DNA from: Gemmatimonadota bacterium
Lineage (GTDB): Bacteria > Gemmatimonadota > Gemmatimonadetes > Palauibacterales > Palauibacteraceae
NCBI GenBank assembly: GCA_039588275.1
Contig: JBDHAC010000028.1
Span: 1,782-65,781, forward strand
DNA: 64,000 bases
Reading direction: 5' to 3'
The notes under the pieces are model-generated. The model saw only the letters and a list, made by a program, of their open reading frames with translations, did not search any database and was not told the origin of the DNA. The position numbers were made by a program, and so were the translations under genes. Positions 26,056-38,003 of the stretch are shown piece after piece; the stretch's first letter is position 1; each line of letters opens with the position of its first letter.

Positions 26056-27084
26056 TTGAGCGACTCGATCCGGCGTGTGTTCGAAGCGACGCCGATGTCG
26101 GTGGAGGAGGCCGAGGCGGCGTTCGATCGGTTCATGGATGGCTCGGCGACTCCGATCGAGATGGCGGCGCTGCTCACCGCGCTCAAGCTGCGTGGCGAGA
26201 CGGCCCCCGAGATCGCCGGGGGCGTTCGCGCCCTGCGCAAAGCGATGGTGCCGGTGGAGCTCGGGACGCGGCGCGCGGTGGACACGTGCGGGACGGGCGG
26301 CGGCACGCTGACCACATTCAACATTTCGACCGCGGCGGCGTTCGTAGCGGCGGGGGGAGGTGTGCGGGTGGCGAAGCACGGCAACCGCTCTTTTACGTCG
26401 AGCTGTGGAAGCGCGGACCTCCTGGAGCAGCTCGGGATCCCCATCAAGCTCGACCCGGATGCCGCTCCTCGTGTCTTCGAGGATGCCGGCATCGTCTTCC
26501 TGTATGCCCCGGCTTTCCACCCCGCCATGCGTCACGTGGGCCCGGTCCGTCGCGAGCTGGGCGTGACGACGATCATGAATCTCCTCGGGCCGCTGGCGAA
26601 CCCGGCGCGGGTGCGACGGCAGGTGATCGGTGTGGCGAGACCGGAGTTGCTCGGTCTGGTGGGAGAGGCCCTGCACGAGCTGGGACACGAACGCGCGCTC
26701 GTCGCGCACGGAGAGCCGGGCATCGATGAGCTGAGCCCCCTGGGTGTCACGCGCATCGTCCAGCTGGACGAGCGCGAGGTGCGGCACTACGAGCTCTCAC
26801 CGTCCGAGTTCGGCTGGGCGGGCTACCGCGCCGACGAGTTGAGCGGTGCCGACCCCCACGCGAATGTCGAGCGGGTTAGCCGCGTTCTCCGCGGGGAAGA
26901 CCGGGGTGGAGCGCGAGCCGCCGTCCTCCTCAATGCGGCAGCGACGTTCTGGGTCGCGGGCGAGGTCGAGACGGTCGTGGAAGGGATTCAGCGGGCGGAG
27001 ACGTCGATCGATGAAGGTGGCGCGTGGGATGCCCTGGAGCGTCTGCGCGCCGCGACCGTCGCTCATGGTGGATCGGGCGACTGA
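26056..27084 (+). CDS. trpD: anthranilate phosphoribosyltransferase
   Basis: DTCGTGGGT, KHGNRS, PAFHPAM motifs. TTG 26056 is preceded by GAGGGAGAAG; an alternative ATG lies at 26095. Confidence 0.92.
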   Translation: MSDSIRRVFEATPMSVEEAEAAFDRFMDGSATPIEMAALLTALKLRGETAPEIAGGVRALRKAMVPVELGTRRAVDTCGTGGGTLTTFNISTAAAFVAAGGGVRVAKHGNRSFTSSCGSADLLEQLGIPIKLDPDAAPRVFEDAGIVFLYAPAFHPAMRHVGPVRRELGVTTIMNLLGPLANPARVRRQVIGVARPELLGLVGEALHELGHERALVAHGEPGIDELSPLGVTRIVQLDEREVRHYELSPSEFGWAGYRADELSGADPHANVERVSRVLRGEDRGGARAAVLLNAAATFWVAGEVETVVEGIQRAETSIDEGGAWDALERLRAATVAHGGSGD

Positions 27085-27244
27085 GCGGAGGAGACGGGAA
27101 CCTCCGCCCCGACGGTTGTGGGAAAAAGGTGGGAGGTGGGTACCGTCAGGGCGGGCTCCGCTTGTGAACCTACGAGGCTCCCCGTCACCTCATCCTGATC
27201 AACCGCTCTGGCGAGCCGATTGTTTCAGGAAGACCGCTCGCTCC

Positions 27245-27853
27245 TCAGTAGCGTCGAATCACTCCGATCACGACGCCTTGAATGGTTATCCGGTCCGGAT
27301 CGTAGTACATCGGTTCCAGATCCGGGTTTGCCGGCTGCAGCCGCACCCGGCCGTTGTCGCGGAAGAACTTCTTCATCGTCGCATTTTCACCGTCGATGAG
27401 CGCGATCACCATCTCGCCGCTGTGCGCCGTGTCGCGGGATTGGACGATCACGTAGTCGCCGTCTCGGATCTGCTCGTCGATCATCGAACTCCCGCGGACC
27501 CTGAGCACGTAGTGCTGGGCAACGGATCCCGCGATCATGTCCTCGGGCACCGAGATCGACTCCTGCTCCTCGATCGCCTCGATGGGTAGACCTGCGGCGA
27601 CGCTGCCCAGTAACCGCAACTCCACCGCGGCGATGCGAATGTCCGAATCGACCAACTCGATGGAACGGCTCTCGTTGTAGTTCTTCCGGATGTACCCCTT
27701 CGACTGCAGGTTACTCAGGTGCTCGTGCACGGTAGCGAGAGATCGGTATTCGAAGTTCTCCGCGATCTCCTCGAAGCTCGGGGAATAACCGCGGAATCGG
27801 ACGAATCCCTCGATGAAGTCGAGGATCTCGCGCTGGCGCTTTGTGAGAGCCAT
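27245..27853 (-). CDS. lexA: LexA repressor
   Basis: N-terminal winged HTH LTKRQREILDFI...SPSFEEIA...SLATVHEHLSNLQSKGYI. Cleavage-region AAG and the S24 peptidase Ser/Lys context (GSSMID...; ...ATMKKF). Confidence 0.93.
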   Translation of the reverse strand: MALTKRQREILDFIEGFVRFRGYSPSFEEIAENFEYRSLATVHEHLSNLQSKGYIRKNYNESRSIELVDSDIRIAAVELRLLGSVAAGLPIEAIEEQESISVPEDMIAGSVAQHYVLRVRGSSMIDEQIRDGDYVIVQSRDTAHSGEMVIALIDGENATMKKFFRDNGRVRLQPANPDLEPMYYDPDRITIQGVVIGVIRRY

Positions 27854-27923
27854 CTCGTGCCCCCCGGAGGTCGAGCCCGCCTCGACGAGAGGCGGGAAGG
27901 GTCCATGAGGAACAGCTCATTGA

Positions 27924-27960
27924 CCGAACGGAAACCGAATATACCCGAATAAGTACCGAA
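27924..27960. promoter_or_regulatory. four phased CCGAA direct repeats in the lexA / amidohydrolase divergent region (candidate operator)
   Basis: CCGAA at 27924, 27935, 27945 and 27956 (spacing 11, 10, 11 bp), embedded in the only AT-rich patch of the gap (GAATATACCCGAATAAGTACCGAA). It abuts GTG 27961. Confidence 0.3.
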
Positions 27961-29628
27961 GTGCAAGCCCGCAAGACGCTCGGGCGAGCGACGATCTTCA
28001 TCCTTCTTACGAGCGCTCCGATCCTCTCGGCGCTCGTGTCGTCGGCGCTCGTGTCGGCGGTCGTGGGGGCGGAGGCCGACGGACGACCGCGCGAGGCGGT
28101 CGACGGCCAGCCGCTCGTTACAGCGCTGGTCGACGTGAACGTCGTCCCGCTCGACGGGGAGCGCGTGCTCGAAGGCTCCACCGTGATCGTGGAGGGAGAT
28201 CGGATCGTGACGGTCGGCCCGGTGGAGACGGTCGCCGTTCCCGAGGGGGCGATCGTGGTCGAAGGAGCGGGTGGCTACCTGATCCCCGGATTGGCCGACA
28301 TGCACTTCCACGCCGACGGCCGGCCCGAGGCGTTCATGCTCGCGGTCGCGCACGGCGTGACGACCGTACGCAACCTGAACGCGCGGCGGCGGGACCTCGA
28401 TGTGACGCGGCGCATCGCCGACGGTGAGCTCATCGGACCGAGCGTGTACAACGGACCGAGCCTGGCTGGGGTGCCCCCCGCATACATGCCGATCGTCCGG
28501 GCCTACCAGTTCGTGCTCGCCGCGGCGCTGGGCCTGGGGGCGCTCGCGATCCTTTGGATCGGGACCCGGGCCACGCGCCGCCGCGCAGCGCCGTCGTGGC
28601 GAAGAGCTCGAGTCCCGGTCGGAGTCGGGCTCTTCCTGATCGGGGTCGCCGGGGCCGTGTTGGGGTTCCCCTCTCCGGAGCCGTTGCTTCGCGCCCTCGG
28701 CGGTGACGACGTGACGCTGTCACCCGACCGGGCGCGGGAGATCGTGCTCGACCACCGGGCGATGGGAGCCGACTTCATCAAGGTAAACCAGTTCCTGCGC
28801 CGCGACGTGTTCGATGCGATCGTCTCGGCCGCCACCAGCGCGGGGTTCCCCGTGATCGGGCACGTCTCGGGCGACGTCGGACTCGAGCACGCGCTCGCCT
28901 CGGGTGTGGAGATCCAGCACACGACCGAGATCGCCCCGTATCTATCCCGGGACGAGAGGTACGACGACCCGCGCCAGAGGTTCGACCTGCTCGAGGCGGA
29001 CGCGAAGATGGATCGCACGGTCGAGCTGATTCGAGAGGCCGGGGTGGCGTTCACACCGACCCTGAGTCTGTACGACCACATCGATACTCACCTGCAGGCC
29101 GATCTCTTCTATCAGCTCATGGGCCGGCCCGAGGTCCGCCTCATGCCTCCGAGCTACACCGACGACTGGCACGATCCAGGCCGGAATCCGGTCCTACGAC
29201 GGTTCGATGCGGCCGACCGCCTGTACGTTTCCCGTTATCTGGACGTCCAGAACCGGCTGGTCCAGGAGCTGTCGCGCGCCGGGGTCCCGATCCTCGCGGG
29301 CACCGACGTGACGGCCGTCCCGGGCGCCGTATGGGGCGAATCCCTGCACCGCGAGCTGGAGTTGCTGGTCGGCGCGGGTCTCACGCCCTACGAGGCGCTG
29401 TCTGCCGCGAGCTGGGTGGCGGCCGGGGCCCTCGGCGAGCTCGAGTATTGGGGCACGATCGGTCCGGGGATGCAGGCGGACCTCGTCCTATTGGCTGGCA
29501 ATCCGCTGGAAAACGTCTCCCGCACGCGCGATCGTGTGGGCGTCATGCTGCGCGGCAGGTGGTATCCGCAATCGGAGTTGGAGCGCGTGCTGGATCAGGT
29601 AGAGGCGTCCTACGCGGTGGAGAATTGA
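27961..29628 (+). CDS. amidohydrolase-family metallohydrolase, secreted, with an internal two-TM insertion
   Basis: Signal-like N-terminus. HxH motif ADMHFH; downstream GH, GTD and ADLVLL amidohydrolase-type motifs. Hydrophobic hairpin at aa 181-236. Stop overlaps the trpC start (TTGA). Confidence 0.8.
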   Translation: MQARKTLGRATIFILLTSAPILSALVSSALVSAVVGAEADGRPREAVDGQPLVTALVDVNVVPLDGERVLEGSTVIVEGDRIVTVGPVETVAVPEGAIVVEGAGGYLIPGLADMHFHADGRPEAFMLAVAHGVTTVRNLNARRRDLDVTRRIADGELIGPSVYNGPSLAGVPPAYMPIVRAYQFVLAAALGLGALAILWIGTRATRRRAAPSWRRARVPVGVGLFLIGVAGAVLGFPSPEPLLRALGGDDVTLSPDRAREIVLDHRAMGADFIKVNQFLRRDVFDAIVSAATSAGFPVIGHVSGDVGLEHALASGVEIQHTTEIAPYLSRDERYDDPRQRFDLLEADAKMDRTVELIREAGVAFTPTLSLYDHIDTHLQADLFYQLMGRPEVRLMPPSYTDDWHDPGRNPVLRRFDAADRLYVSRYLDVQNRLVQELSRAGVPILAGTDVTAVPGAVWGESLHRELELLVGAGLTPYEALSAASWVAAGALGELEYWGTIGPGMQADLVLLAGNPLENVSRTRDRVGVMLRGRWYPQSELERVLDQVEASYAVEN

Positions 29629-30476
29629 TCCTCGACGAGATCATCGAGAGCAAGCGAGCCGAGGTCGCGTGGCTCGCCGGGGCCGCCGCGGATCTCGAAG
29701 CCGCGGCCGCCGCTGCCGGCCCGCCGCGCGGATTCGACGCGGCGCTTCGCGCCCCGGGATCCGTCTCGGTGATCGCGGAATTCAAGCGGCGGTCACCTTC
29801 CGAGGGTGACATCAATCCCTACGCCGACGTCGCGGGCGTGGCCCGGGCGTACGAGCGGGGTGGAGCGGCGGCGGCCTCGGTTCTCACCGACGGTCCCTAT
29901 TTCGGCGGAGAGCTCGCGGACCTGCGACGCGCCCGCGACGCGTCCGGGCTGCCGCTCCTCCGGAAAGACTTTCTCATCGATCCCCTGCAGCTATACGAGT
30001 CGAGGGCGGCGGGCGCGGATGCGGTTCTGCTCATCGTCAAGGCGCTCTCCGACGGCACCCTGCGCGAGTTGCGCGCTGGGGCCGAGGACCTCGGCATGTC
30101 CGCGCTGGTCGAGGCACACGATGCGGCTGAGATCGAGCGCGCCCTGGATGCCGGCGCCCGCATCGTGGGCGTGAACGCGCGCGACCTGCAGACGTTCGAT
30201 GTGGATCTCGAAGCGTCCCTGAACTTGATCGAAGAGATCCCCGGCGACGTGATCGCGGTCGCGGAGAGCGGTGTCCGCGGTGGAGCGGACGTAGAGCGTG
30301 CGGGGCGGGCCGGAGCCGACGCCGTACTCGTGGGAGGCTGGCTCATGAAGAGCGATCCGCGCCGTGGTGTCGAAGAGCTGGCCGGTCATCGAAGACGCCC
30401 CCGGGCAGGGTGCGAAGACCCGGCCGGGACGCCGTTCGACGGGGAAGAAGCCGGGGACACGGCGTGGTCCGGGTGA
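29625..30476 (+). CDS. trpC: indole-3-glycerol-phosphate synthase
   Basis: ORF 29331..30476. TTG 29625 gives (M)ILDEIIESKRAEV. SVIAEFKRRSPS, LRKDFLIDPLQ, LVEAHD and GVNARDL motifs. About 30 aa of non-conserved C-terminal tail. Confidence 0.9.
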   Translation: MILDEIIESKRAEVAWLAGAAADLEAAAAAAGPPRGFDAALRAPGSVSVIAEFKRRSPSEGDINPYADVAGVARAYERGGAAAASVLTDGPYFGGELADLRRARDASGLPLLRKDFLIDPLQLYESRAAGADAVLLIVKALSDGTLRELRAGAEDLGMSALVEAHDAAEIERALDAGARIVGVNARDLQTFDVDLEASLNLIEEIPGDVIAVAESGVRGGADVERAGRAGADAVLVGGWLMKSDPRRGVEELAGHRRRPRAGCEDPAGTPFDGEEAGDTAWSG

Positions 30477-31147
30477 AGATCTGCGGGTGTCGAAGGCCCG
30501 TGGACGCGATGGCCGCTGCGGACGCGGGAGCCGCCTACGCGGGTGTCGTGTTCGCCGAGCGCCTGCGTCGCGTCACGCCTGCCGAAGCTGCCGAGATCCT
30601 CGCGCCTGCCCGTGGCCGCCTGCGTGCCGTCGGCGTCTTCGTGGACGCCGGCGACGACGAGGTCCTTTCCATACGGGAGGTGACGGGGTTGGATATCGTG
30701 CAGCTCCACGGCCGCGAGCCGGCCGAGTCGTGCGCGGCTCTGCGAGAAGCGGGCCTCGAGGTGTGGAAGGCCCTCCGCCCCCGCACCGCCGAGGAGCTCG
30801 CCGCGGGGCTGGATCGCTACGCCGGCGCCGTGGATGCGATCCTCGTGGAGGGGTTCTCGGGGGCGGCCGCCGGTGGCACCGGCACCGGCTTTCCCATCGA
30901 GTGGATCGCGCCATTGCGGGAGCAGCTCGCCTCGGATGACGAGGCGCGGCCTGCGGATGCACCGGGAGACGGCGTCGTGCGACCACGGTTCGTGCTGGCG
31001 GGCGGACTCACGCCCGAGAATGTCCGCGACGCGATCCGGCGCGCGCGTCCTTCGATCGTCGATGTGAGCAGCGGTGTCGAGCGTGCTCCAGGCGAGAAAG
31101 ACCCTACACTCATCGAGCGCTTCGTGAGCGCGGCTCGCTCCCTCTGA
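30473..31147 (+). CDS. trpF: phosphoribosylanthranilate isomerase
   Basis: ORF 30410..31147. GTG 30473 gives (M)KICGCRRPVDA and overlaps the trpC stop (GTGA); GTG 30464 is an alternative. IVQLHG, LAGGLTPENV and DVSSGVE motifs. Confidence 0.88.
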   Translation: MKICGCRRPVDAMAAADAGAAYAGVVFAERLRRVTPAEAAEILAPARGRLRAVGVFVDAGDDEVLSIREVTGLDIVQLHGREPAESCAALREAGLEVWKALRPRTAEELAAGLDRYAGAVDAILVEGFSGAAAGGTGTGFPIEWIAPLREQLASDDEARPADAPGDGVVRPRFVLAGGLTPENVRDAIRRARPSIVDVSSGVERAPGEKDPTLIERFVSAARSL

Positions 31148-31315
31148 GACTGTTCTGCAGCCCGGGCCAAAAGCCGATCCCGGGACCGGCCCCGAGAATC
31201 CTCCGAGGGCCGTGTCAGCCGTCTTTCGCATCCCAAAAAGGCCGTCATATTGCGCGTGCGACCCGCGGCTCACGTATCGGGCCGCTCCGGAGACGGTCGG
31301 TGGGAGGAGATTCGC

Positions 31316-34015
31316 ATGATACGATCGCTCGTTCACGAGCCTCACAAGATAAAGACGGTTCGCCCCGCGTCGTTCCCCAGCCTTCAGGAGCGCAAGAAGT
31401 ACCTGGCGGAGGCGCATTTCAACGTCTTCAACCTGACTCCCTCACAGGTCGGCTTCGACATGTGCTCCCTGGGGACCAGCGCCATGACCCAGGAGCAGTT
31501 GTCGGGGCAGCTGATCGGGGATGAGGCCTACGCCGGGGCCAGAAACTTCGAGCACCTGAAGAACGCGGTCCGCGACGTATTGGGGCATACCTACGTGTGT
31601 CCCACGCACAACATTCTCGGGTGCGTCAAGCTGGTGACGGCCACCATGGTCCCGGCGGGCTCGGTGGTCCCTTCGAACGCTCGCACGCGGACCGACATTC
31701 TGGCTCCGCGCCAGGTGAGTGTCCCGGACATTCGGGATCACAGCGAAGAGATCTTCACCGGTAGCGTCGATCTCGCCCGCCTGGAGGAGACCCTCGAGGA
31801 GGGGAACGTTGCGCTCATCAGCGTGCACGCGTTCGCGGACGGGCAGCACCCGTTCAGCCTCGGGAACCTGCGAGCGGTGCGCGCGCTCGCGGACCGATAC
31901 GGGGTACGGCTCGTCCTGGACGGATCGCGGGTGATCGAGAACGCCTGGTACATCCAACATCACGAGCCCGGGGTGGCCTCGCACGGCATCGCGGCCCTCG
32001 TGAAGCAGATCGCCAAGACGGCGCACGTGTTCCAGATCGACGGCGCACAGGACCCCAAGTGCCCCACCGGCGGATTGCTGGCCACCGACAACCCGCAGGA
32101 CCACGAGCACTTCATGAACGAGGTGGTGGTCTACGAAGGTCTCCACACCTACGGCGGCATGGCCGGACGAACGATGGAGGTCCTCGCTCGCGGCCTCGAG
32201 GAGATGTGCCTGGAGGATGAGGTGCAGTGGGTGATGCAGCAGACGGAGCGCTTCAGCGAGCGTCTGCGGGGCGCGGGTGTCCCGCGCGAGCGCGGGTGTG
32301 ACGGGGCGTACGTCCGCGCCGACGCCTTCTTCCCCCATCTCGAGCGATTCCAGCAGGACGCGTTTTCGGCCGCCCTATACGAGATGTCGGGCGTACGGGC
32401 GCTGGCTCACGGTCGAGTCGGCCGCGATCAGATCGTCCCGGTACAGATCCCGCGCCTGGCGATGACGAGCCGGCAACTGGACCAGGTGGCGGACGCGATC
32501 ATCAGCCTGTATCGGCAGCGGGAGATGGTTCCGCCTCTCGAGCCGGCGCGAGACGGGCGCTGGCGGGACCAGATGCGGTACCGGTGGGTGTACTCGGACC
32601 TCGAGCCATACGAGTTCGATACCTACCCCTTCCTGATCCACACCGTAGAGCGCATCGGGCGGTTGAGTCGGCGAGAACGGCAGCAGGCCATCCGCGAGGC
32701 GGGATACAACACGTTCCTCCTCCGCTCGGCCGATGTCACGATCGACCTGCTGACCGACTCGGGCACGTCGGCGATGAGCACCGATCAGTGGGCGGCCTAC
32801 GATGGGGCGCGTGCGACCCCGACCACGTCCGACGAGTACCTGCACCTGGTGGACGTTCTGCGCGAGGCCACGGGCTACGAGCACATCATCCCCACGCACC
32901 AGGGCCGGGCGGCCGAACAAATACTCTCGGAGATCATGATTCAGCCGGGTCAGATCGTGCCCGGGAACATGTATTTCACCACTACGAAGCTCCACCAGGA
33001 GCTTGCGGGGGGGATCTTCCGGGACGTCATCGTGGATGAGGCTCACGATCCGCAGAGCGACTTCCCGTGGAAGGGGAACATCGCTCTGCCCAAGCTCGAG
33101 GCTCTGGTCGAAGAGCACGGCGCCGAGAAGATCTCCTACATTTCGTTCGAGCACTCGGTGAACATGGCCGGGGGCGAGCCCGTGTCGATGGACAACATGC
33201 GGGAGGTGTACGCCTACTGCTCCAGCCACGACATCCCGGTGTTCTTCGACGCCACCCGCATGGTGGAGAACGCCTACATGATCCAGCAGCGGGACCCGCA
33301 CTACGAGAGTACGCGCGTGCGCGACATCCTGCGCGAAATGCTCCTGTACGGTGACGGGTGCACGGTGTCGGGGAAGAAGGACTTCCTGATCAACATCGGT
33401 GGCCTGCTGGCGTTCAAGGACAACGCCGAGTGGCGGGAGCTCGCGGAGGAGAAGATTCGCATCTACGAGGGGAAGGTCACCGATGGAGGGCTGGCGGCCT
33501 CCGACCTGGCGGCCATCGCGGTCGGCGTGCAGGAGATGCTGGACGATCGGTACATCCGGTCTCGAGTCCGCCAGACCGAGGCGCTCGGTCAGATGCTCCT
33601 GGACGCCGGCGTACCCATCGTCACGCCGCCGGGGACCCATGCCATCTTCCTGGACGCGAAGCGCTTCCTGTCCCATATCGACCAGGATGAGTATCCGGCC
33701 CAGCGGCTGGCGGCCGAGATCTACGTGGAGACGGGGGTGCGAGCGATGGAGCGCGGAAACGTCTCGAAAGGCCGCGATCCCGAGACCGGTGACAACTATC
33801 GGCCTCCGCTTGAGCTCGTGCGGCTGACGATTCCTCGCCGGGTGTATACGCGAGACCACATGAGGGCCGTGGCGGACGGCATCATCCGGCTGTACGAGAA
33901 GCGCGACGAGATCCAGGGGCTCAGGTTCGTGTACGAGCCGGACAAGCTCCGGTTCTTCCAGGGCCGGTTCGAGCCGGTCGAAGCCGGCGAGAGCGCGATC
34001 CCGGCCGGAGCCTAG
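31316..34015 (+). CDS. tandem fusion of two tryptophanase/tyrosine-phenol-lyase (beta-eliminating lyase) modules; N-module lacks the PLP lysine, C-module lacks the catalytic Tyr motif
   Basis: ORF 31250..34015. ATG 31316 is preceded by GGGAGGAG. N-module has GDEAYAG but DGAQD and [10 protein letters not shown]-module has [39 protein letters not shown] and [10 protein letters not shown]. Confidence 0.85.
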
Positions 34016-34064
34016 CCCGGTCGAACCGCAGCCGATCGAAGCACAGCCCATAGAAAGGGGTTCG

Positions 34065-35303
34065 ATGCCCGACGAGCGCGACACGCTGACCGCCCCTGGT
34101 GGAGACGGCTGGTTCGGTTCATACGGCGGGCGCTTCGTACCCGAAACGCTGATTCCGGCGCTGGATGAGTTGAGCGCCGCGTGGGCGGCGGCGTGCTCCG
34201 ACCCCGAATTCCGGCGCGAGCTCGACCAGCTGCTGCGCGAGTTCGCGGGGCGCCCCACAGCGATGTACGAAGCCCGACGACTTGGCGACGCTCTGGGCGG
34301 CGTACGCGTGTGGCTCAAGCGCGAGGACCTGTGCCACACGGGGGCCCACAAGATCAACAACACGGTGGGACAGGCGCTGCTCGCCCGGCGTATGGGGAAG
34401 GAGCGGGTCATCGCCGAAACCGGGGCGGGCCAGCACGGCGTGGCCACGGCGACCGCGTGCGCGCTGTTCGGGTTCGAGTGCGTCGTGTACATGGGCAAGG
34501 AGGACATGCGCCGTCAGGCCCTCAACGTGGAGCGCATGCGGCTCCTCGGGGCGGAAGTGCGTCAGGTAGACAGCGGCACGCGCACGCTGAAGGACGCCAC
34601 CAACGAGGCCATTCGAGACTGGGTCGAGACGGTCGAGACGACGCACTACATCATCGGCTCGGTCGTAGGGCCGGCGCCATATCCGGAGATGGTGCGCGAC
34701 TTCCAGCGGGTGATCGGGGACGAGGCCTCAGAGCAAATGACGGCCCGCGGGGTCGAGCCCGCAGCCGCCTTTGCGTGCGTCGGCGGCGGGTCCAATTCGA
34801 TCGGGTTGTTCACCGCTTTTCTGGGTCGGGGCGAGGTCGAGCTCGTCGGCGTCGAGGCGGCGGGCGAAGGGGTCGATACGGGCCGCCATGCCGCCTCGCT
34901 GGGCGCCGGGATCCCGGGGGTGCTGCACGGCTCGTACAGCTATCTGCTGCAGGATGAGGATGGACAGGTGAAGCCGGCACACTCGGTCTCGGCGGGGCTG
35001 GACTACCCCGGCGTCGGCCCGGAGCACTCGCAGCTCCGCGACAGCGGCCGCGTCCGGTATGAATCGGTCACCGACGCACAGGCGCTCGAGGCCTTCGAGG
35101 CGCTGTGTCGCCACGAGGGCATCATCCCGGCCCTCGAAAGCGCGCACGCGCTCGCGCGGCTGGCGGCGGAGAAGGAACGCTGGGCGGGCCGCGATGTGCT
35201 CGTGTGCCTGAGCGGCCGGGGCGACAAGGACGTCGGAGAGGTGGCGGCGCTGATCGGCCGGAAGCTCCCGGCGGGTCTCCAGAGCTCCTCAGTCTCGGAC
35301 TGA
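34065..35303 (+). CDS. trpB: tryptophan synthase beta chain
   Basis: HTGAHKINN (PLP lysine), GAGQHG, GGGSN and [11 protein letters not shown] motifs. Confidence 0.95.
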
Positions 35304-35336
35304 CAGCTGAATCGTCGACCCGAGGGGGTCCACCGA

Positions 35337-35939
35337 ATGGCATTCATCGATTACGTGAACGAGGACGAGATCCCACCCGAAGACCGGGTGCCGGACCACG
35401 ACAACATCGTCCGCATTCACGGCGTACACAGCCACACCATGCGCCAGCACTACGATCTGTATCGCGAGCTGATGTACGCGAAGGGGCCACTCACTCGAAT
35501 CCAGCGCGAGATGATCGCTGTCGTCGTGTCGGCGGAGAATCGGTGCAAGTACTGACTGCTGCACCACGGGGAGGGTCTCCGTCGACTGCTGGAAGCCAAG
35601 GGGATGACCCCGGAGCCGCGAGAAGCGCTTCTCACCGCGCTGGCTATCGATCGGGAGGGTGCCGACCTGACGCCGCCCGACCGCGCGATGCTGGATTACG
35701 TCGTGAAGCTGACGCTGACGCCCGGTGATATCGGAGAAGCGGACGTCGATGCCCTGCGCGCGCACGGGTTCGACGATCGCGGGATCCACGATATCTGCGC
35801 CATCACGGCGTATTACGCGTTCGTAAATCGGATGGCCGACGGTCTCGGGGTCGAGCTCGAGCCCGACAGGAGCGACACGCTCGCGCGCGGACCCGGGTTC
35901 GATGGATCAGGCGGCGGCCAACCCGACGGCGACGCATGA
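35337..35939 (+). CDS. AhpD/carboxymuconolactone-decarboxylase-like peroxidase-related protein, predicted selenoprotein (in-frame TGA 35553-35555 read as Sec in a C-K-Y-U motif)
   Basis: Track ORFs 35337..35555 and 35604..35939 are in the same frame, separated by a single TGA. The joined sequence reads ...MIAVVVSAENRCKY-TGA-LLHHGEGL..., with the TGA at the second Cys position of the family CxxC motif. Downstream family motifs are intact. A SECIS-like hairpin follows. Stop overlaps the trpA start (ATGA). Confidence 0.7.
35567..35584 (+). other. candidate bacterial SECIS hairpin
   Basis: Begins 11 nt after the TGA. Pairs C67-G84, G68-C83, G69-U82, (G81 bulge), G70-C80, G71-C79, A72-U78, G73-C77. 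Apical loop GGU (35574-35576). Confidence 0.45.
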
Positions 35940-36703
35940 TCGAGCTTCGCCGAGACGGTCGCGCGGGATTCATCCCGTTCCTCACGCATGGGTTCCCGAC
36001 GCCCGAGGCCACACCGGGACTTCTTGCCACCCTCGCGAGCGCCGGCGCCGACGTGATCGAGCTGGGCGTGCCGTTCAGCGACCCGCTCGCCGACGGACCG
36101 ACGATCCAGCGAGCGAGCTGGCGGGCGCTCGAGGGAGGGATAACGCTCGAGAGCACTCTCGATCTGGTGCGTGGACTCTCCGCCGACCTGCCCCCGATCG
36201 TGATCTTCAGTTATCTGAACCCCGTCCTGCGCATGGGGGTCGAGAGGTTCCTGGAGCGAGCCGAGGCCGCCGGGGCGGCGGGCCTGTTGATCACCGACTT
36301 GCCGGTCGGGACACACCCCGACCTGGAAGGTCGACTGGCCGCCTCGAAGCTCGACCTGATTCCGCTGGTCGCCCCCACGACTCCGAGGGCGCGACTCGAG
36401 ACGATCGTCGGACACGCATCGGGCTTCCTTTACTACATATCCCGTCTCGGTGTGACCGGGGCGCGCGAAAGCCTCGACGAGGGCTTGGGGAGCAAGGTCG
36501 AGGAGCTGAGACGCCTGGTCGAGCTGCCGGTCGCCGTCGGCTTCGGAATCTCGACGGCCGAGCAGGCGAGAGCCGTGGCCGCGATCGCGGATGGAGTAGT
36601 CGTGGGATCCGCCCTCATCGCCGCCCTTGAGCGGGGCGAAGATTCGTTCGCCGCTCTGGCGCACGAGCTGGCCGGGGCTGTGCACGGGGATCCCGGTGAC
36701 TGA
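35936..36703 (+). CDS. trpA: tryptophan synthase alpha chain
   Basis: FIPFLTHGFP, IELGVPFSDPLADGPTIQ, YYISRLGVTG and GFGIS motifs. Confidence 0.95.
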   Translation: MIELRRDGRAGFIPFLTHGFPTPEATPGLLATLASAGADVIELGVPFSDPLADGPTIQRASWRALEGGITLESTLDLVRGLSADLPPIVIFSYLNPVLRMGVERFLERAEAAGAAGLLITDLPVGTHPDLEGRLAASKLDLIPLVAPTTPRARLETIVGHASGFLYYISRLGVTGARESLDEGLGSKVEELRRLVELPVAVGFGISTAEQARAVAAIADGVVVGSALIAALERGEDSFAALAHELAGAVHGDPGD

Positions 36704-38003
36704 GGAGATCCCCGACACGGGTTCCACCCGGGCGGGGGAGGAAGACGGGCGCCTGGGGAGCCTCGCGCGCCTCTTCCTGAAGCTGGGGTTCCTGGCGTTC
36801 GGCGGACCGGCCGCCCACGTGGCCATGATGGAGGACGAGGTCGTGGCCCGCCGCCGCTGGCTGTCGCGACCTGCCTTCTTGGACATCCTCGGCGCGACGA
36901 ACCTCATCCCCGGCCCCAACTCGACCGAGATGGCCATGCACGTCGGGTGGCGGCGAGCCGGGACGCGCGGGCTGGTGGTCGCCGGGGCGTGCTTCATCGG
37001 CCCGGCAGCCCTCATCACGGGCGTTCTGGCATGGGCGTACCTCCGGTACGGTGCCCGCCCGGAGGTCGGACCCTTCCTGTTCGGGATCAAGCCTGCGGTC
37101 CTGGCCGTGATCCTGATCGCACTCTGGCGGCTGGCGCGCGTGGCGGCGCGAACCGCGCCTCTCGCCGGGCTCGGTGCGGCCGTGGCGCTGGCCGCGCTCG
37201 CGGGCGTGAACGAGATCTTGGCTCTCCTCGCGGGCGGCCTGCTCGGCACCCTGGCGGCGCGCCCCTGGAGCCGCAGATCCGGCCCCACTGTGGGACCGCC
37301 GCCCGACCTCGCGGATGCCGGCGAAGCCGATCGCGACGAGCGTGCCGATGAGGATGAGGGTGCCGATGAGGACGGGGGTGTCGATGAGGACGAGCGTGCC
37401 GACGAGGAAGAGGGGGGGCACCCGGGTCCGGCGGCTGTCCTCCTCGCCCCTCCGGTGGCCGCCGGGTGGATGGCCGCCGGCGCTCCGCTCTGGACCCTGG
37501 GGCTGTTCTTCCTCAAGGTCGGGGCCGTGCTATACGGGAGCGGCTACGTCCTCGTCGCTTTCCTCGAGGGCGATGTGGTGGGGCGCTATGGCTGGCTGAC
37601 GCGACCCGAGCTCCTCGATGCGATCGCGATCGGCCAGTTCACCCCGGGACCGGTGCTCTCGACCGCGACTTTCGTCGGCTACCTGGCGGCGGGCCCGGCG
37701 GGCGCGGTCGTCGCGACCATCGGCATCTTCCTCCCGTCGTTCGTGTTCGTGTCGATCCTGGGTCCGCTGGTGCCCCGGCTGCGCGAGTCGGCGTGGACGG
37801 CCGCGTTTCTGGATGCCGTGAACGCCAGCGCGGTCGGGTTGATCGCCGCCGTCACCGTGAGCCTCGGCGTGGCCACGCTCGTGGATTGGCGGGCGTGGGC
37901 GATCGGTCTCGCGGCCGCCGCAGCCGGGCTGATCGGGAAAGTGGGCAGCGTCTGGCTCGTACTGGGGGGTGCGGTCATCGGCTGGGCGCTCGGGCTCTTC
38001 TGA
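36696..38003 (+). CDS. chrA: chromate ion transporter (CHR family), two CHR halves joined by an acidic repeat linker
   Basis: ORF 36627..38003. GTG 36696 is the likely start (8-nt overlap with trpA). LGFLAFGGPAAHVAMMEDEVV...LIPGPNSTE in half 1; FLKVGAVLYGSGYVLVAFL...QFTPGPVLSTATFVGY in half 2. Confidence 0.85.
   Translation: MTEEIPDTGSTRAGEEDGRLGSLARLFLKLGFLAFGGPAAHVAMMEDEVVARRRWLSRPAFLDILGATNLIPGPNSTEMAMHVGWRRAGTRGLVVAGACFIGPAALITGVLAWAYLRYGARPEVGPFLFGIKPAVLAVILIALWRLARVAARTAPLAGLGAAVALAALAGVNEILALLAGGLLGTLAARPWSRRSGPTVGPPPDLADAGEADRDERADEDEGADEDGGVDEDERADEEEGGHPGPAAVLLAPPVAAGWMAAGAPLWTLGLFFLKVGAVLYGSGYVLVAFLEGDVVGRYGWLTRPELLDAIAIGQFTPGPVLSTATFVGYLAAGPAGAVVATIGIFLPSFVFVSILGPLVPRLRESAWTAAFLDAVNASAVGLIAAVTVSLGVATLVDWRAWAIGLAAAAAGLIGKVGSVWLVLGGAVIGWALGLF
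37326..37415 (+). repeat. in-frame 18-bp tandem repeat, 5 units, encoding acidic hexapeptides (ADRDER ADEDEG ADEDGG VDEDER ADEEEG)
   Basis: Units GCCGATCGCGACGAGCGT / GCCGATGAGGATGAGGGT / GCCGATGAGGACGGGGGT / GTCGATGAGGACGAGCGT / GCCGACGAGGAAGAGGGG, read directly from the sequence. Confidence 0.85.

Follow-up and report, generated by a model that had tools for sequence, protein, structure and literature searches.

A fused double tyrosine phenol-lyase-like protein with reciprocal loss of active-site residues in its two modules

The double TPL gene and its product

The DNA analyzed here (the window) is a 64,000-nucleotide stretch from a Gemmatimonadota bacterium (GenBank assembly GCA_039588275.1, contig JBDHAC010000028.1, positions 1,782 to 65,781 of the forward strand). 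On its plus strand, between trpF and trpB, lies an uninterrupted open reading frame (ORF) of 899 codons plus stop, 31316-34015, whose product is a fused double protein resembling tyrosine phenol-lyase (TPL); we refer to it as double TPL. The G+C fraction at third codon positions (GC3) of this gene, 0.87, is typical for real genes in the window, whose overall G+C content is 67%. The original prediction had described two tryptophanase-family modules in one ORF, with complementary loss of catalytic motifs, inside the tryptophan biosynthesis operon. A profile scan bears out the two modules: the Pfam family Beta_elim_lyase (PF01212) matches twice, at 92 bits in the N-terminal module (N-module) and 236 bits in the C-terminal module (C-module), each above the gathering score of 27, and is the only Pfam family seen in the protein. 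Profile matches also confirmed the genes on either side, and with them the position claimed for the ORF (Table 1).

The two modules are 29% identical over 439 residues (E = 7e-48). Each motif quoted in the original prediction was found where it had been placed: IGDEAYAG, with Tyr72 at 31529-31531; DGAQD, with Gln245 at 32048-32050; and SGKKD, with Lys688 at 33377-33379; RLTIPR is also present. The stretch from the DSGT-type glycine to the PTH proline had been called ungapped and is so, with 43 residues separating the two in the N-module, the C-module, and Erwinia TPL. The junction between the modules exceeds the native TPL termini by only about 2 residues, and Trp416, Arg417, and Asp418 near it are invariant in 70 aligned sequences. 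A 38-nt direct repeat, 76% identical (32486-32523 and 33869-33906), occupies equivalent spots of both modules; it is a leftover, DNA-level trace of the internal duplication.

Reciprocal loss of active-site residues

We rebuilt the numbering of Erwinia TPL from the alignment, verified it at Tyr71, Lys257, Tyr291, Arg404, and Phe448, and used it to compare 131 double proteins (120 family clusters and 11 distant double proteins), each split into its modules and aligned to TPL. In TPL, pyridoxal 5'-phosphate (PLP) is bound by Lys257, which also abstracts the alpha-proton; the general base is Arg381 and the general acid Tyr71; Thr124 fixes the phenol hydroxyl, and Phe448 and Phe449 strain the substrate. 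In Escherichia coli tryptophanase, the counterparts of TPL Tyr71 and Tyr291 are Tyr74 and Tyr307, which form hydrogen bonds with the PLP phosphate of the neighboring subunit in the catalytic dimer, in agreement with the cross-interface action originally proposed for the tyrosine loop.

The C-module of double TPL retains all 25 of the same-subunit TPL positions that we checked: Phe36, Thr49, Asp50, Ser51, Gly52, Thr53, Gln98, Gly99, Arg100, Glu103, Phe123, Thr124, Asn185, Asp214, Thr216, Arg217, Ser254, Lys256, Lys257, Asn262, Met379, Arg381, Arg404, Phe448, and Phe449. Met379 is retained in 119/120 family members and the other 24 in 120/120. All five positions that the partner subunit supplies in TPL are replaced: Asp68 by Arg or Lys; Glu69 by Ala in 108/120; Tyr71 by Pro (78 of 120), Ala (29), or Ser (7), with no Tyr in these counts; Met288 by Asn, His, or Ser (Lys in the window protein); and Tyr291 by Asp (116/120) or Asn (4/120). 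GARATP does replace the TPL tyrosine motif in the C-module, as originally described; in the profile alignment Tyr71 falls on Pro502, not on the Thr, a correction without substantive effect.

The N-module shows the reciprocal pattern. Asp68, Glu69, Tyr71, and Tyr291 are each kept in 120/120 members, and the Met288 position is Leu in 119/120. Glu70 of this module corresponds to the partner-subunit Glu69 of TPL, which we take to complete the monovalent-cation site. The PLP-lysine region is gone (Lys257 to Gln, 119/120; Lys256 to Ala, 117/120; Ser254 to Asp, 119/120), as is the phosphate cup (Gln98 to Asn, 119/120; Gly99 to Val or Ile; Arg100 to Leu, 120/120; Glu103 to Val). Phe123 and Thr124 are deleted, Asn185 is Asp, Arg381 is His, Pro, or Gln, and Arg404 is Pro (113/120) or Ala (7/120). 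The N-module lacks Arg381, Arg404, Thr124, Phe123, Met379, Phe448, and Phe449, all of which occur in 119 or 120 of the 120 C-modules; it keeps equivalents of Asp214, Arg217, and Phe36.

The reciprocal loss first noticed in a few motifs extends, then, to about 30 positions, in the 120 family members and in the 11 distant double proteins. We looked in the profile alignment for a PLP lysine in the first module and for the tyrosine motif in the second; neither is present in the window protein. The residue states across the family match the earlier suggestion of one competent and one doubly dead predicted site.

The predicted live pocket is TPL-type

Matched against the TPL of PDB entry 1c7g, the C-module aligns over TPL residues 4-454 with one single-residue indel (E = 2e-162); its matches to tryptophanases are far weaker (E = 1e-117 to 1e-91). 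It is 52-57% identical to solved TPLs and 33-43% identical to tryptophanases, and Foldseek aligned it to TPL chains with a target-normalized template modeling score (TM-score) of 0.84. The N-module is about 33% identical to 1c7g (E = 1e-58) and covers TPL residues 6-435; a degenerate counterpart of the C-terminal strand follows. Scored with the NCBIfam TPL equivalog TIGR02618 (cutoff, 720.7), the whole protein reaches 865.7 by summing its modules, the C-module alone 630.5, and the N-module alone 240.3. The tryptophanase equivalogs TIGR02617 (cutoff, 825.8) and NF053783 (cutoff, 750) fail, with 596.5 and 647.7, respectively, for the whole protein and 419 and 432 for the C-module.

Because of the 52-57% identity, the TIGR02618 scores, and the retention of Thr124, Phe448/Phe449, and Met379, the putative live pocket is to be classed as TPL-type and not tryptophanase-type. 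The same evidence turns against the original idea of a tryptophan-degrading or indole-handling enzyme.

Distribution

In a word-indexed search over 5.8 billion proteins, an identical 899-aa protein was recovered from public collections, along with at least 119 other clusters at 73-89% identity and 94-100% query coverage (68% for one fragment). These clusters are 829-914 aa long, nearly all about 883-914 aa; their sources are NCBI, JGI, ENA, and Logan assemblies, and some lie on contigs of 1-2.5 Mb. A scan of a genome collection with one genome per species found 169 loci with a relative, the best 80 of which were retrieved for context work. All of the genome-collection loci belong to metagenome-assembled genomes, whose host phyla include Gemmatimonadota, Acidobacteriota (Thermoanaerobaculia and Holophagae), Planctomycetota, Myxococcota, Candidatus Eisenbacteria, Desulfobacterota, and others; the nearest two loci (L001 and L002) are from Gemmatimonadota genomes and encode proteins with 92-93% identity to double TPL. 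The double TPL family occurs widely among uncultured bacteria, in several phyla.

Selection and evolutionary history

Comparison with eight related loci shows purifying selection on both modules: dN/dS (the ratio of nonsynonymous to synonymous substitution rates) ranges from 0.08 to 0.12 in the N-module and from 0.05 to 0.11 in the C-module. Invariant columns make up 22% of the N-module versus 39% of the C-module. Among the 70 aligned sequences, the substituted pocket residues of the N-module are themselves invariant or nearly so (Asn99, Leu101, Asp175/Gly176, Ser204/Arg205, Asp242, Ala244, and Gln245), which argues that this half, though predicted to be dead, is maintained and not decaying.

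An exhaustive HMMER search with the N-module over 1.84 billion cluster representatives identified the eleven more distant double proteins, which are 847-928 aa long and 31-37% identical over the matched stretches; the best-matching stretch lay in the N-half of seven and in the C-half of four. Their polarity is identical to that of the family in 11/11: the N-module carries both tyrosines and the C-module carries the lysines. Some relatives are less degenerate. P0132, P0133, and P0138 retain Ser-Gly-Lys-Lys in the N-module, while P0132, P0138, and P0139 retain Tyr71 in the C-module; from their residues, such proteins look like intermediates. The search otherwise returned truncated fragments of double proteins and single-domain proteins. 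It yielded no stand-alone gene of the N-module type, as a two-gene form would require; seven single-domain sequences that we examined keep both the Lys and the Tyr.

In a rough neighbor-joining tree, the C-modules of the main group lie beside bona fide TPL, and the N-modules form a separate clade with congruent branching. This congruence of the N and C subtrees points to one old fusion for the main group. A second group (P0132, P0135, and P0138, with P0133 nearby) may stem from an earlier or separate fusion event. These four proteins, of about 860-910 aa, have changed pockets, with Arg381 replaced by Lys or Trp and Phe448 by Ala or Ser; they may have two partly functional sites and a non-tyrosine substrate.

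Predicted structure

The AlphaFold2 model of the whole 899-aa chain, built with the 70-sequence alignment, has a mean predicted local distance difference test score (pLDDT) of 82.5 and a predicted template modeling score (pTM) of 0.79; the latter argues for defined packing of both modules in the model. Block means at the junction are 92 (residues 421-430) and 86 (residues 431-440). Six segments fall below a pLDDT of 50. Five of them are elements of the predicted live site: 70-74 (the Tyr72 loop), 276-278 (the Tyr279 loop), 478-485 (the Asp-Ser-Gly-Thr loop), 617-619 (beside Asn616), and 875-882 (Phe880/Phe881); the sixth is the C-terminal tail. The matching loops of the dead site have pLDDT values of about 70-88. 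Low confidence at the live site fits a modeled pocket from which the cofactor or a partner is missing. Foldseek aligned each module to TPL chains (target-normalized TM-score, 0.84), never both modules at once. The N-terminal arms of both modules appear in the model as 8-residue strands (10-17 and 439-446); in tryptophanase, the arm strands pair with each other across the noncatalytic interface of the tetramer.

Genomic context

The trp cluster around double TPL (26056-36703) is heavily interrupted: a divergent lexA and an amidohydrolase gene split trpD from trpC-trpF, and an AhpD-like gene precedes trpA (Table 1). We identified neither trpE nor trpG among the nearby ORFs scanned. Of the 80 related loci, L001 and L002 are the only two in which double TPL has trp genes beside it; the flanks retrieved for the other 78 (up to 10 kb per side, contig permitting) contain none. 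When all ORFs within 6 kb were clustered across the 80 loci, no conserved operon partner emerged, the commonest neighbor occurring in only 9 loci. Homologs of about 900 aa, for which the original prediction had suggested a search, do exist, but the trp linkage is not conserved among them: the trp context is confined to the window, L001, and L002, and a functional tie to the tryptophan synthesis operon is not supported.

L001 and L002 share a conserved stretch of about 110 nt that precedes the start codon, and it is still recognizable upstream of 84%-identical genes in Acidobacteriota and other genomes (L003-L008 and L016); the trpF-proximal part of the trpF-double TPL spacer is variable. Across phyla this 5' region has the pattern CTTTC-CAT-TC...CGTCA-ATT...GGAGGAG and may function as an operator or promoter carried along with the gene. 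Just upstream of the ribosome-binding site, several loci, L004 and L007 among them, have a palindrome, GTGAC-N-GTCAC, which is degenerate in the window. The 5' region has no Rfam match and folds no better than shuffled sequences (z = -0.2). For a regulatory RNA or attenuator near the gene, Rfam gave two sub-threshold chance matches only; a scan for consensus promoters and terminators gave nothing useful, and a search for mobile-element scars found no repeats flanking the double TPL insertion. The GC content of the gene is only slightly below that of its neighbors. Judging from the upstream alignments, double TPL apparently came in together with its own 5' region. Because the trp linkage is lineage-limited, the 5' region apparently came along, and the cluster holds unrelated genes, we read the trp location as a recent lineage-specific insertion in one Gemmatimonadota lineage, and as little evidence of function.

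The AhpD-like frame (200 codons) contains a TGA at 35553-35555, at the second Cys of the AhpD/CMD Cys-x-x-Cys (SAENRCKY[TGA]LLHH). With Cys placed at the TGA, the frame scores 121 bits on TIGR01926 ("peroxidase-related enzyme"; cutoff, 81.8), and the match extends over both sides of that codon. L001 and L002 conserve the TGA together with the ~30 nt that follow it, which include a 7-bp hairpin with a GGU loop beginning 13 nt downstream; the stop codon of the frame overlaps the trpA start (ATGA). The product is likely a selenocysteine protein whose gene carries a selenocysteine insertion sequence (SECIS) element. The hairpin is not significant compared with shuffles (z = +1.1), and the window contains no tRNA gene.

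Table 1. Features of double TPL and neighboring genes in the window (family counts out of 120; distant double proteins out of 11)
Feature	Coordinates	Strand	Remarks
trpD	26056-27084	+	
lexA	27245-27853	-	
Amidohydrolase gene	27961-29628	+	
trpC	ends 30476	+	
trpF	30410-31147	+	Pfam PRAI, 134 bits
Conserved 5' region with GGAGGAG ribosome-binding site	31205-31315	+	From upstream alignments
Double TPL	31316-34015	+	
N-module, residues 1-426	31316-32593	+	TPL-like, predicted catalytically dead; keeps residues for donation in trans
N-module Asp69-Glu70-Ala-Tyr72 (TPL Asp68, Glu69, Tyr71)	31520-31531	+	Asp, Glu, and Tyr 120/120 family, 11/11 distant
N-module Asn99-Ile-Leu101, replacing phosphate-cup Gln98-Gly99-Arg100	31610-31618	+	
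N-module Asp242-Gly-Ala244-Gln245, replacing Ser254-Gly-Lys256-Lys257	32039-32050	+	No PLP lysine
N-module Leu276...Tyr279 (TPL Met288, Tyr291), second trans loop	32141-32152	+	Tyr 120/120, Leu 119/120
N-module Pro375, replacing carboxylate-binding Arg404	32438-32440	+	
Junction, residues 427-438	32594-32629	+	From TPL alignments and model confidence per block
C-module, residues 439-899	32630-34015	+	Predicted PLP-binding, TPL-type catalytic module
C-module Ala500...Pro502 at TPL Glu69, Tyr71 positions	32813-32821	+	Trans residues lost
C-module Gln529-Gly530-Arg531...Glu534 (TPL Gln98, Gly99, Arg100, Glu103), phosphate cup	32900-32917	+	120/120 each
C-module Phe554-Thr555 (TPL Phe123, Thr124), phenol-OH-fixing Thr	32975-32980	+	120/120
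C-module Ser685-Gly-Lys687-Lys688 (TPL Ser254, Lys256, Lys257), PLP Schiff-base lysine	33368-33379	+	120/120 each
C-module Lys720...Asp723 at TPL Met288, Tyr291 positions	33473-33484	+	Second trans loop lost
C-module Met811...Arg813 (TPL Met379, Arg381), general base	33746-33754	+	Arg 120/120, Met 119/120
C-module Arg836 (TPL Arg404), substrate carboxylate anchor	33821-33823	+	120/120
C-module Phe880-Phe881 (TPL Phe448, Phe449), substrate strain	33953-33958	+	120/120
trpB	34065-35303	+	TIGR00263, 584 bits (cutoff, 392)
AhpD-like gene with in-frame TGA	35337-35939	+	
trpA	35936-36703	+	
Chromate transporter gene	36627-38003	+	

A proposed composite active site

We propose that a TPL-like gene underwent an old tandem duplication and fusion, and that the two copies then lost function reciprocally. 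The C-module would contribute its own-site set, namely PLP-binding Lys688, Lys687, the phosphate cup (Gln529, Gly530, Arg531, and Ser685), Asp645, Arg648, and Asn616, together with the carboxylate anchor Arg836, the general base Arg813, and a phenol pocket made of Phe554, Thr555, Met811, Phe880, and Phe881. The N-module, itself predicted to be without PLP, would donate Tyr72 (as general acid), Tyr279, Glu70, and Leu276 across the catalytic-dimer interface. Each N:C pair would thus have one live site, built from the C-module's own residues and the trans residues of the N-module, and one doubly dead site. The predicted reaction is the conversion of L-tyrosine to phenol, pyruvate, and ammonium, or its reverse; indole chemistry is not predicted.

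We put the probability of this composite-site model, in which the catalytic interface is heterotypic (N:C) and the protein an obligate pseudo-heterodimer, at about 0.8; the model taken jointly with tyrosine as the substrate is a little less probable, though still likely. Heterotypic pairing is favored because homotypic pairing would leave the invariant Asp-Glu-x-Tyr and Tyr279 of the N-module without a purpose and the C-module site without a general acid. The N-terminal arm that builds the TPL tetramer is kept in both modules, so two chains probably come together in the native assembly, a pseudo-tetramer with two live sites. Pairing of N and C within one chain and pairing between two chains have roughly even odds; the outcome in both cases would be a pseudo-tetramer with two live sites and two dead ones.

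Several points weigh against the composite-site model or parts of it. The C-module alone is under the TPL equivalog cutoff, which the whole protein passes only through the sum of its two modules. Confidence in the structural model is lowest at the live-site loops, and this is no proof that the site forms. As for the hard-wired form originally envisioned, the arm strands in the model hint that the two modules of one chain may span the noncatalytic interface, in which case the catalytic N:C pairs would form between the two chains of a homodimer. The Leu that the N-module has at the trans Met288 position could shift specificity. Finally, the invariance of the N-module's replaced pocket residues means that the dead site may have a function outside the model.

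Alternative readings

An assembly join or frameshift that merged two adjacent genes, which the original prediction had named as grounds for abandoning the fusion, has nothing in its favor except the unusual length of the protein. We consider it ruled out, its probability being next to nil, by the same continuous architecture of about 890 aa in at least 120 clusters of independent sources and in 169 loci, contigs of 1-2.5 Mb included; moreover, the junction is conserved, with its three invariant residues and pLDDT block means of 86-92. The gene could instead encode a tryptophanase or other indole-handling enzyme integrated into tryptophan biosynthesis, for example salvaging or buffering indole or tryptophan for the flanking TrpB and TrpA. 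It does lie on the same strand as trpF and trpB with short gaps to both, an arrangement kept in L001 and L002, and some sources label family members "tryptophanase." We nevertheless regard this as quite improbable: 78 of the 80 related loci have neither a trp gene in the retrieved flanks nor a conserved neighbor, the C-module pocket is invariantly TPL-type (Thr124, Phe448/Phe449, and Met379), the whole protein scores far under both tryptophanase cutoffs (596 versus 826 and 648 versus 750), the trp cluster tolerates unrelated insertions (lexA, the amidohydrolase gene, and the AhpD-like putative selenoprotein gene), and double TPL brings its own conserved 5' region.

Two further readings concern what the halves do. 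The composite site could be real and the dead pocket of the N-module recruited as an allosteric or regulatory ligand site, making the enzyme self-regulated. The invariant or nearly invariant replacement residues, an N-module dN/dS of about 0.1, and the retained equivalents of Asp214, Arg217, and Phe36 are in line with this, and a noncatalytic pocket has been proposed in the literature for the N-half of the glycine-cleavage P-protein; however, loss of the phosphate cup, the carboxylate-binding Arg, and both partner tyrosines leaves no canonical binding of PLP or an amino acid, and interface packing would explain the conservation equally well, so we consider such a regulatory pocket rather unlikely. 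It is very improbable that double TPL is noncatalytic or has a chemistry or substrate other than that of TPL, such as another beta-substituted amino acid or a mainly synthetic direction, given that every known catalytic or substrate-contacting TPL residue is invariant in the family and that the C-module is 52-57% identical to characterized TPLs. Such a divergence would fit the sub-cutoff TPL score of the C-module alone, the Leu at the trans Met288 position, the altered pockets of distant double proteins (Arg381 to Lys or Trp and Phe448 to Ala), and the origin of all hits in metagenome-assembled genomes, with no cultured host.

Relation to known enzymes and significance

TPL (EC 4.1.99.2) of Citrobacter freundii and Erwinia herbicola (PDB 2ez1 and 1c7g) shares its fold and same-subunit residues with the C-module of double TPL; the N-module carries the equivalents of Tyr71, Tyr291, and Glu69, and both modules keep the N-terminal arm. 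Whereas four identical 456-aa subunits make up the TPL homotetramer, whose four sites are equivalent, double TPL is one 899-aa chain with diverged halves, each of which lacks half of a site, which allows at most one complete site per N:C pair. Tryptophanase (TnaA; TIGR02617 and NF053783) belongs to the same Pfam family and has the same fold and the trans tyrosine pair (Tyr74 and Tyr307 in E. coli); double TPL differs from it in its predicted TPL-type pocket, its lower identity (33-43%), and its equivalog scores below cutoff.

An analogy in organization is offered by the glycine-cleavage P-protein (GcvP/GLDC), whose two fold-type I halves are homologous, with the PLP lysine in the C-half, Gln at that position in the N-half, and one site per pseudo-dimer; it has been described as the exception among otherwise homodimeric fold-type I enzymes. 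Double TPL likewise has its PLP lysine only in the C-half and Gln at the N-half lysine position, and its N-half, too, would complete the site. The two proteins differ in family and chemistry; split alpha/beta two-gene forms are known for GcvP, whereas among the proteins examined we found none for double TPL. The resemblance is convergent and the duplications are independent. In obligate enzyme-pseudoenzyme heterodimers such as the trypanosomal S-adenosylmethionine decarboxylase (AdoMetDC)-prozyme pair, a dead paralog is likewise needed to complete or activate a live one (PMC6221367); there the fold is unrelated, the subunits are unfused, and the dead paralog activates its partner and does not donate catalytic residues.

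Consistent with the remark in the original prediction that no tandem tryptophanase of this type was known, the searchable literature, whose coverage is incomplete, yielded no account of a TPL or tryptophanase in tandem or fused form, so that novelty is unproven; in a survey of tryptophanase diversity, the words duplication and fusion are absent. A paper on Blastocystis tryptophanase proved unrelated. Double TPL is an architectural variant of a known enzyme family for which we found no description. That it should be, after the glycine-cleavage P-protein, a second single-chain fold-type I PLP enzyme of pseudo-heterodimeric form and independent origin, and also one whose dead N-module pocket serves as a regulatory ligand site, is an unlikely conjunction.

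Textbooks present fold-type I PLP enzymes as symmetric homodimers or homotetramers, and the glycine-cleavage P-protein is cited as their only exception. Double TPL appears to be a second natural exception, and lies within the well-studied TPL/tryptophanase family, in which residue roles are known. It would make a clean test case for the question of why, and by what route, an oligomer surrenders half of its sites, and the trans role of Tyr71 and Tyr291 could be probed in it without mixed oligomers. The less degenerate relatives offer an evolutionary series; living intermediates that keep both lysines or both tyrosines would, if the unlikely conjunction above held, document the passage from a symmetric homo-oligomer to an obligate asymmetric enzyme. 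TPL is also an industrial catalyst for L-DOPA, and a single-chain TPL with a fixed catalytic interface could serve biocatalysis.

Since double TPLs are annotated as plain "tyrosine phenol-lyase" or "tryptophanase," and exceed the TPL equivalog cutoff only by the sum of their modules, the potential for indole or phenol formation inferred from metagenomes may be miscounted. Under the unlikely conjunction named above, insertion into the trp cluster of the window's Gemmatimonadota lineage would also couple tyrosine or phenol turnover to tryptophan synthesis. If active, double TPL would be a plausible overlooked route of phenol formation, in a family that is common in uncultured Acidobacteriota, Gemmatimonadota, Planctomycetota, and Myxococcota.

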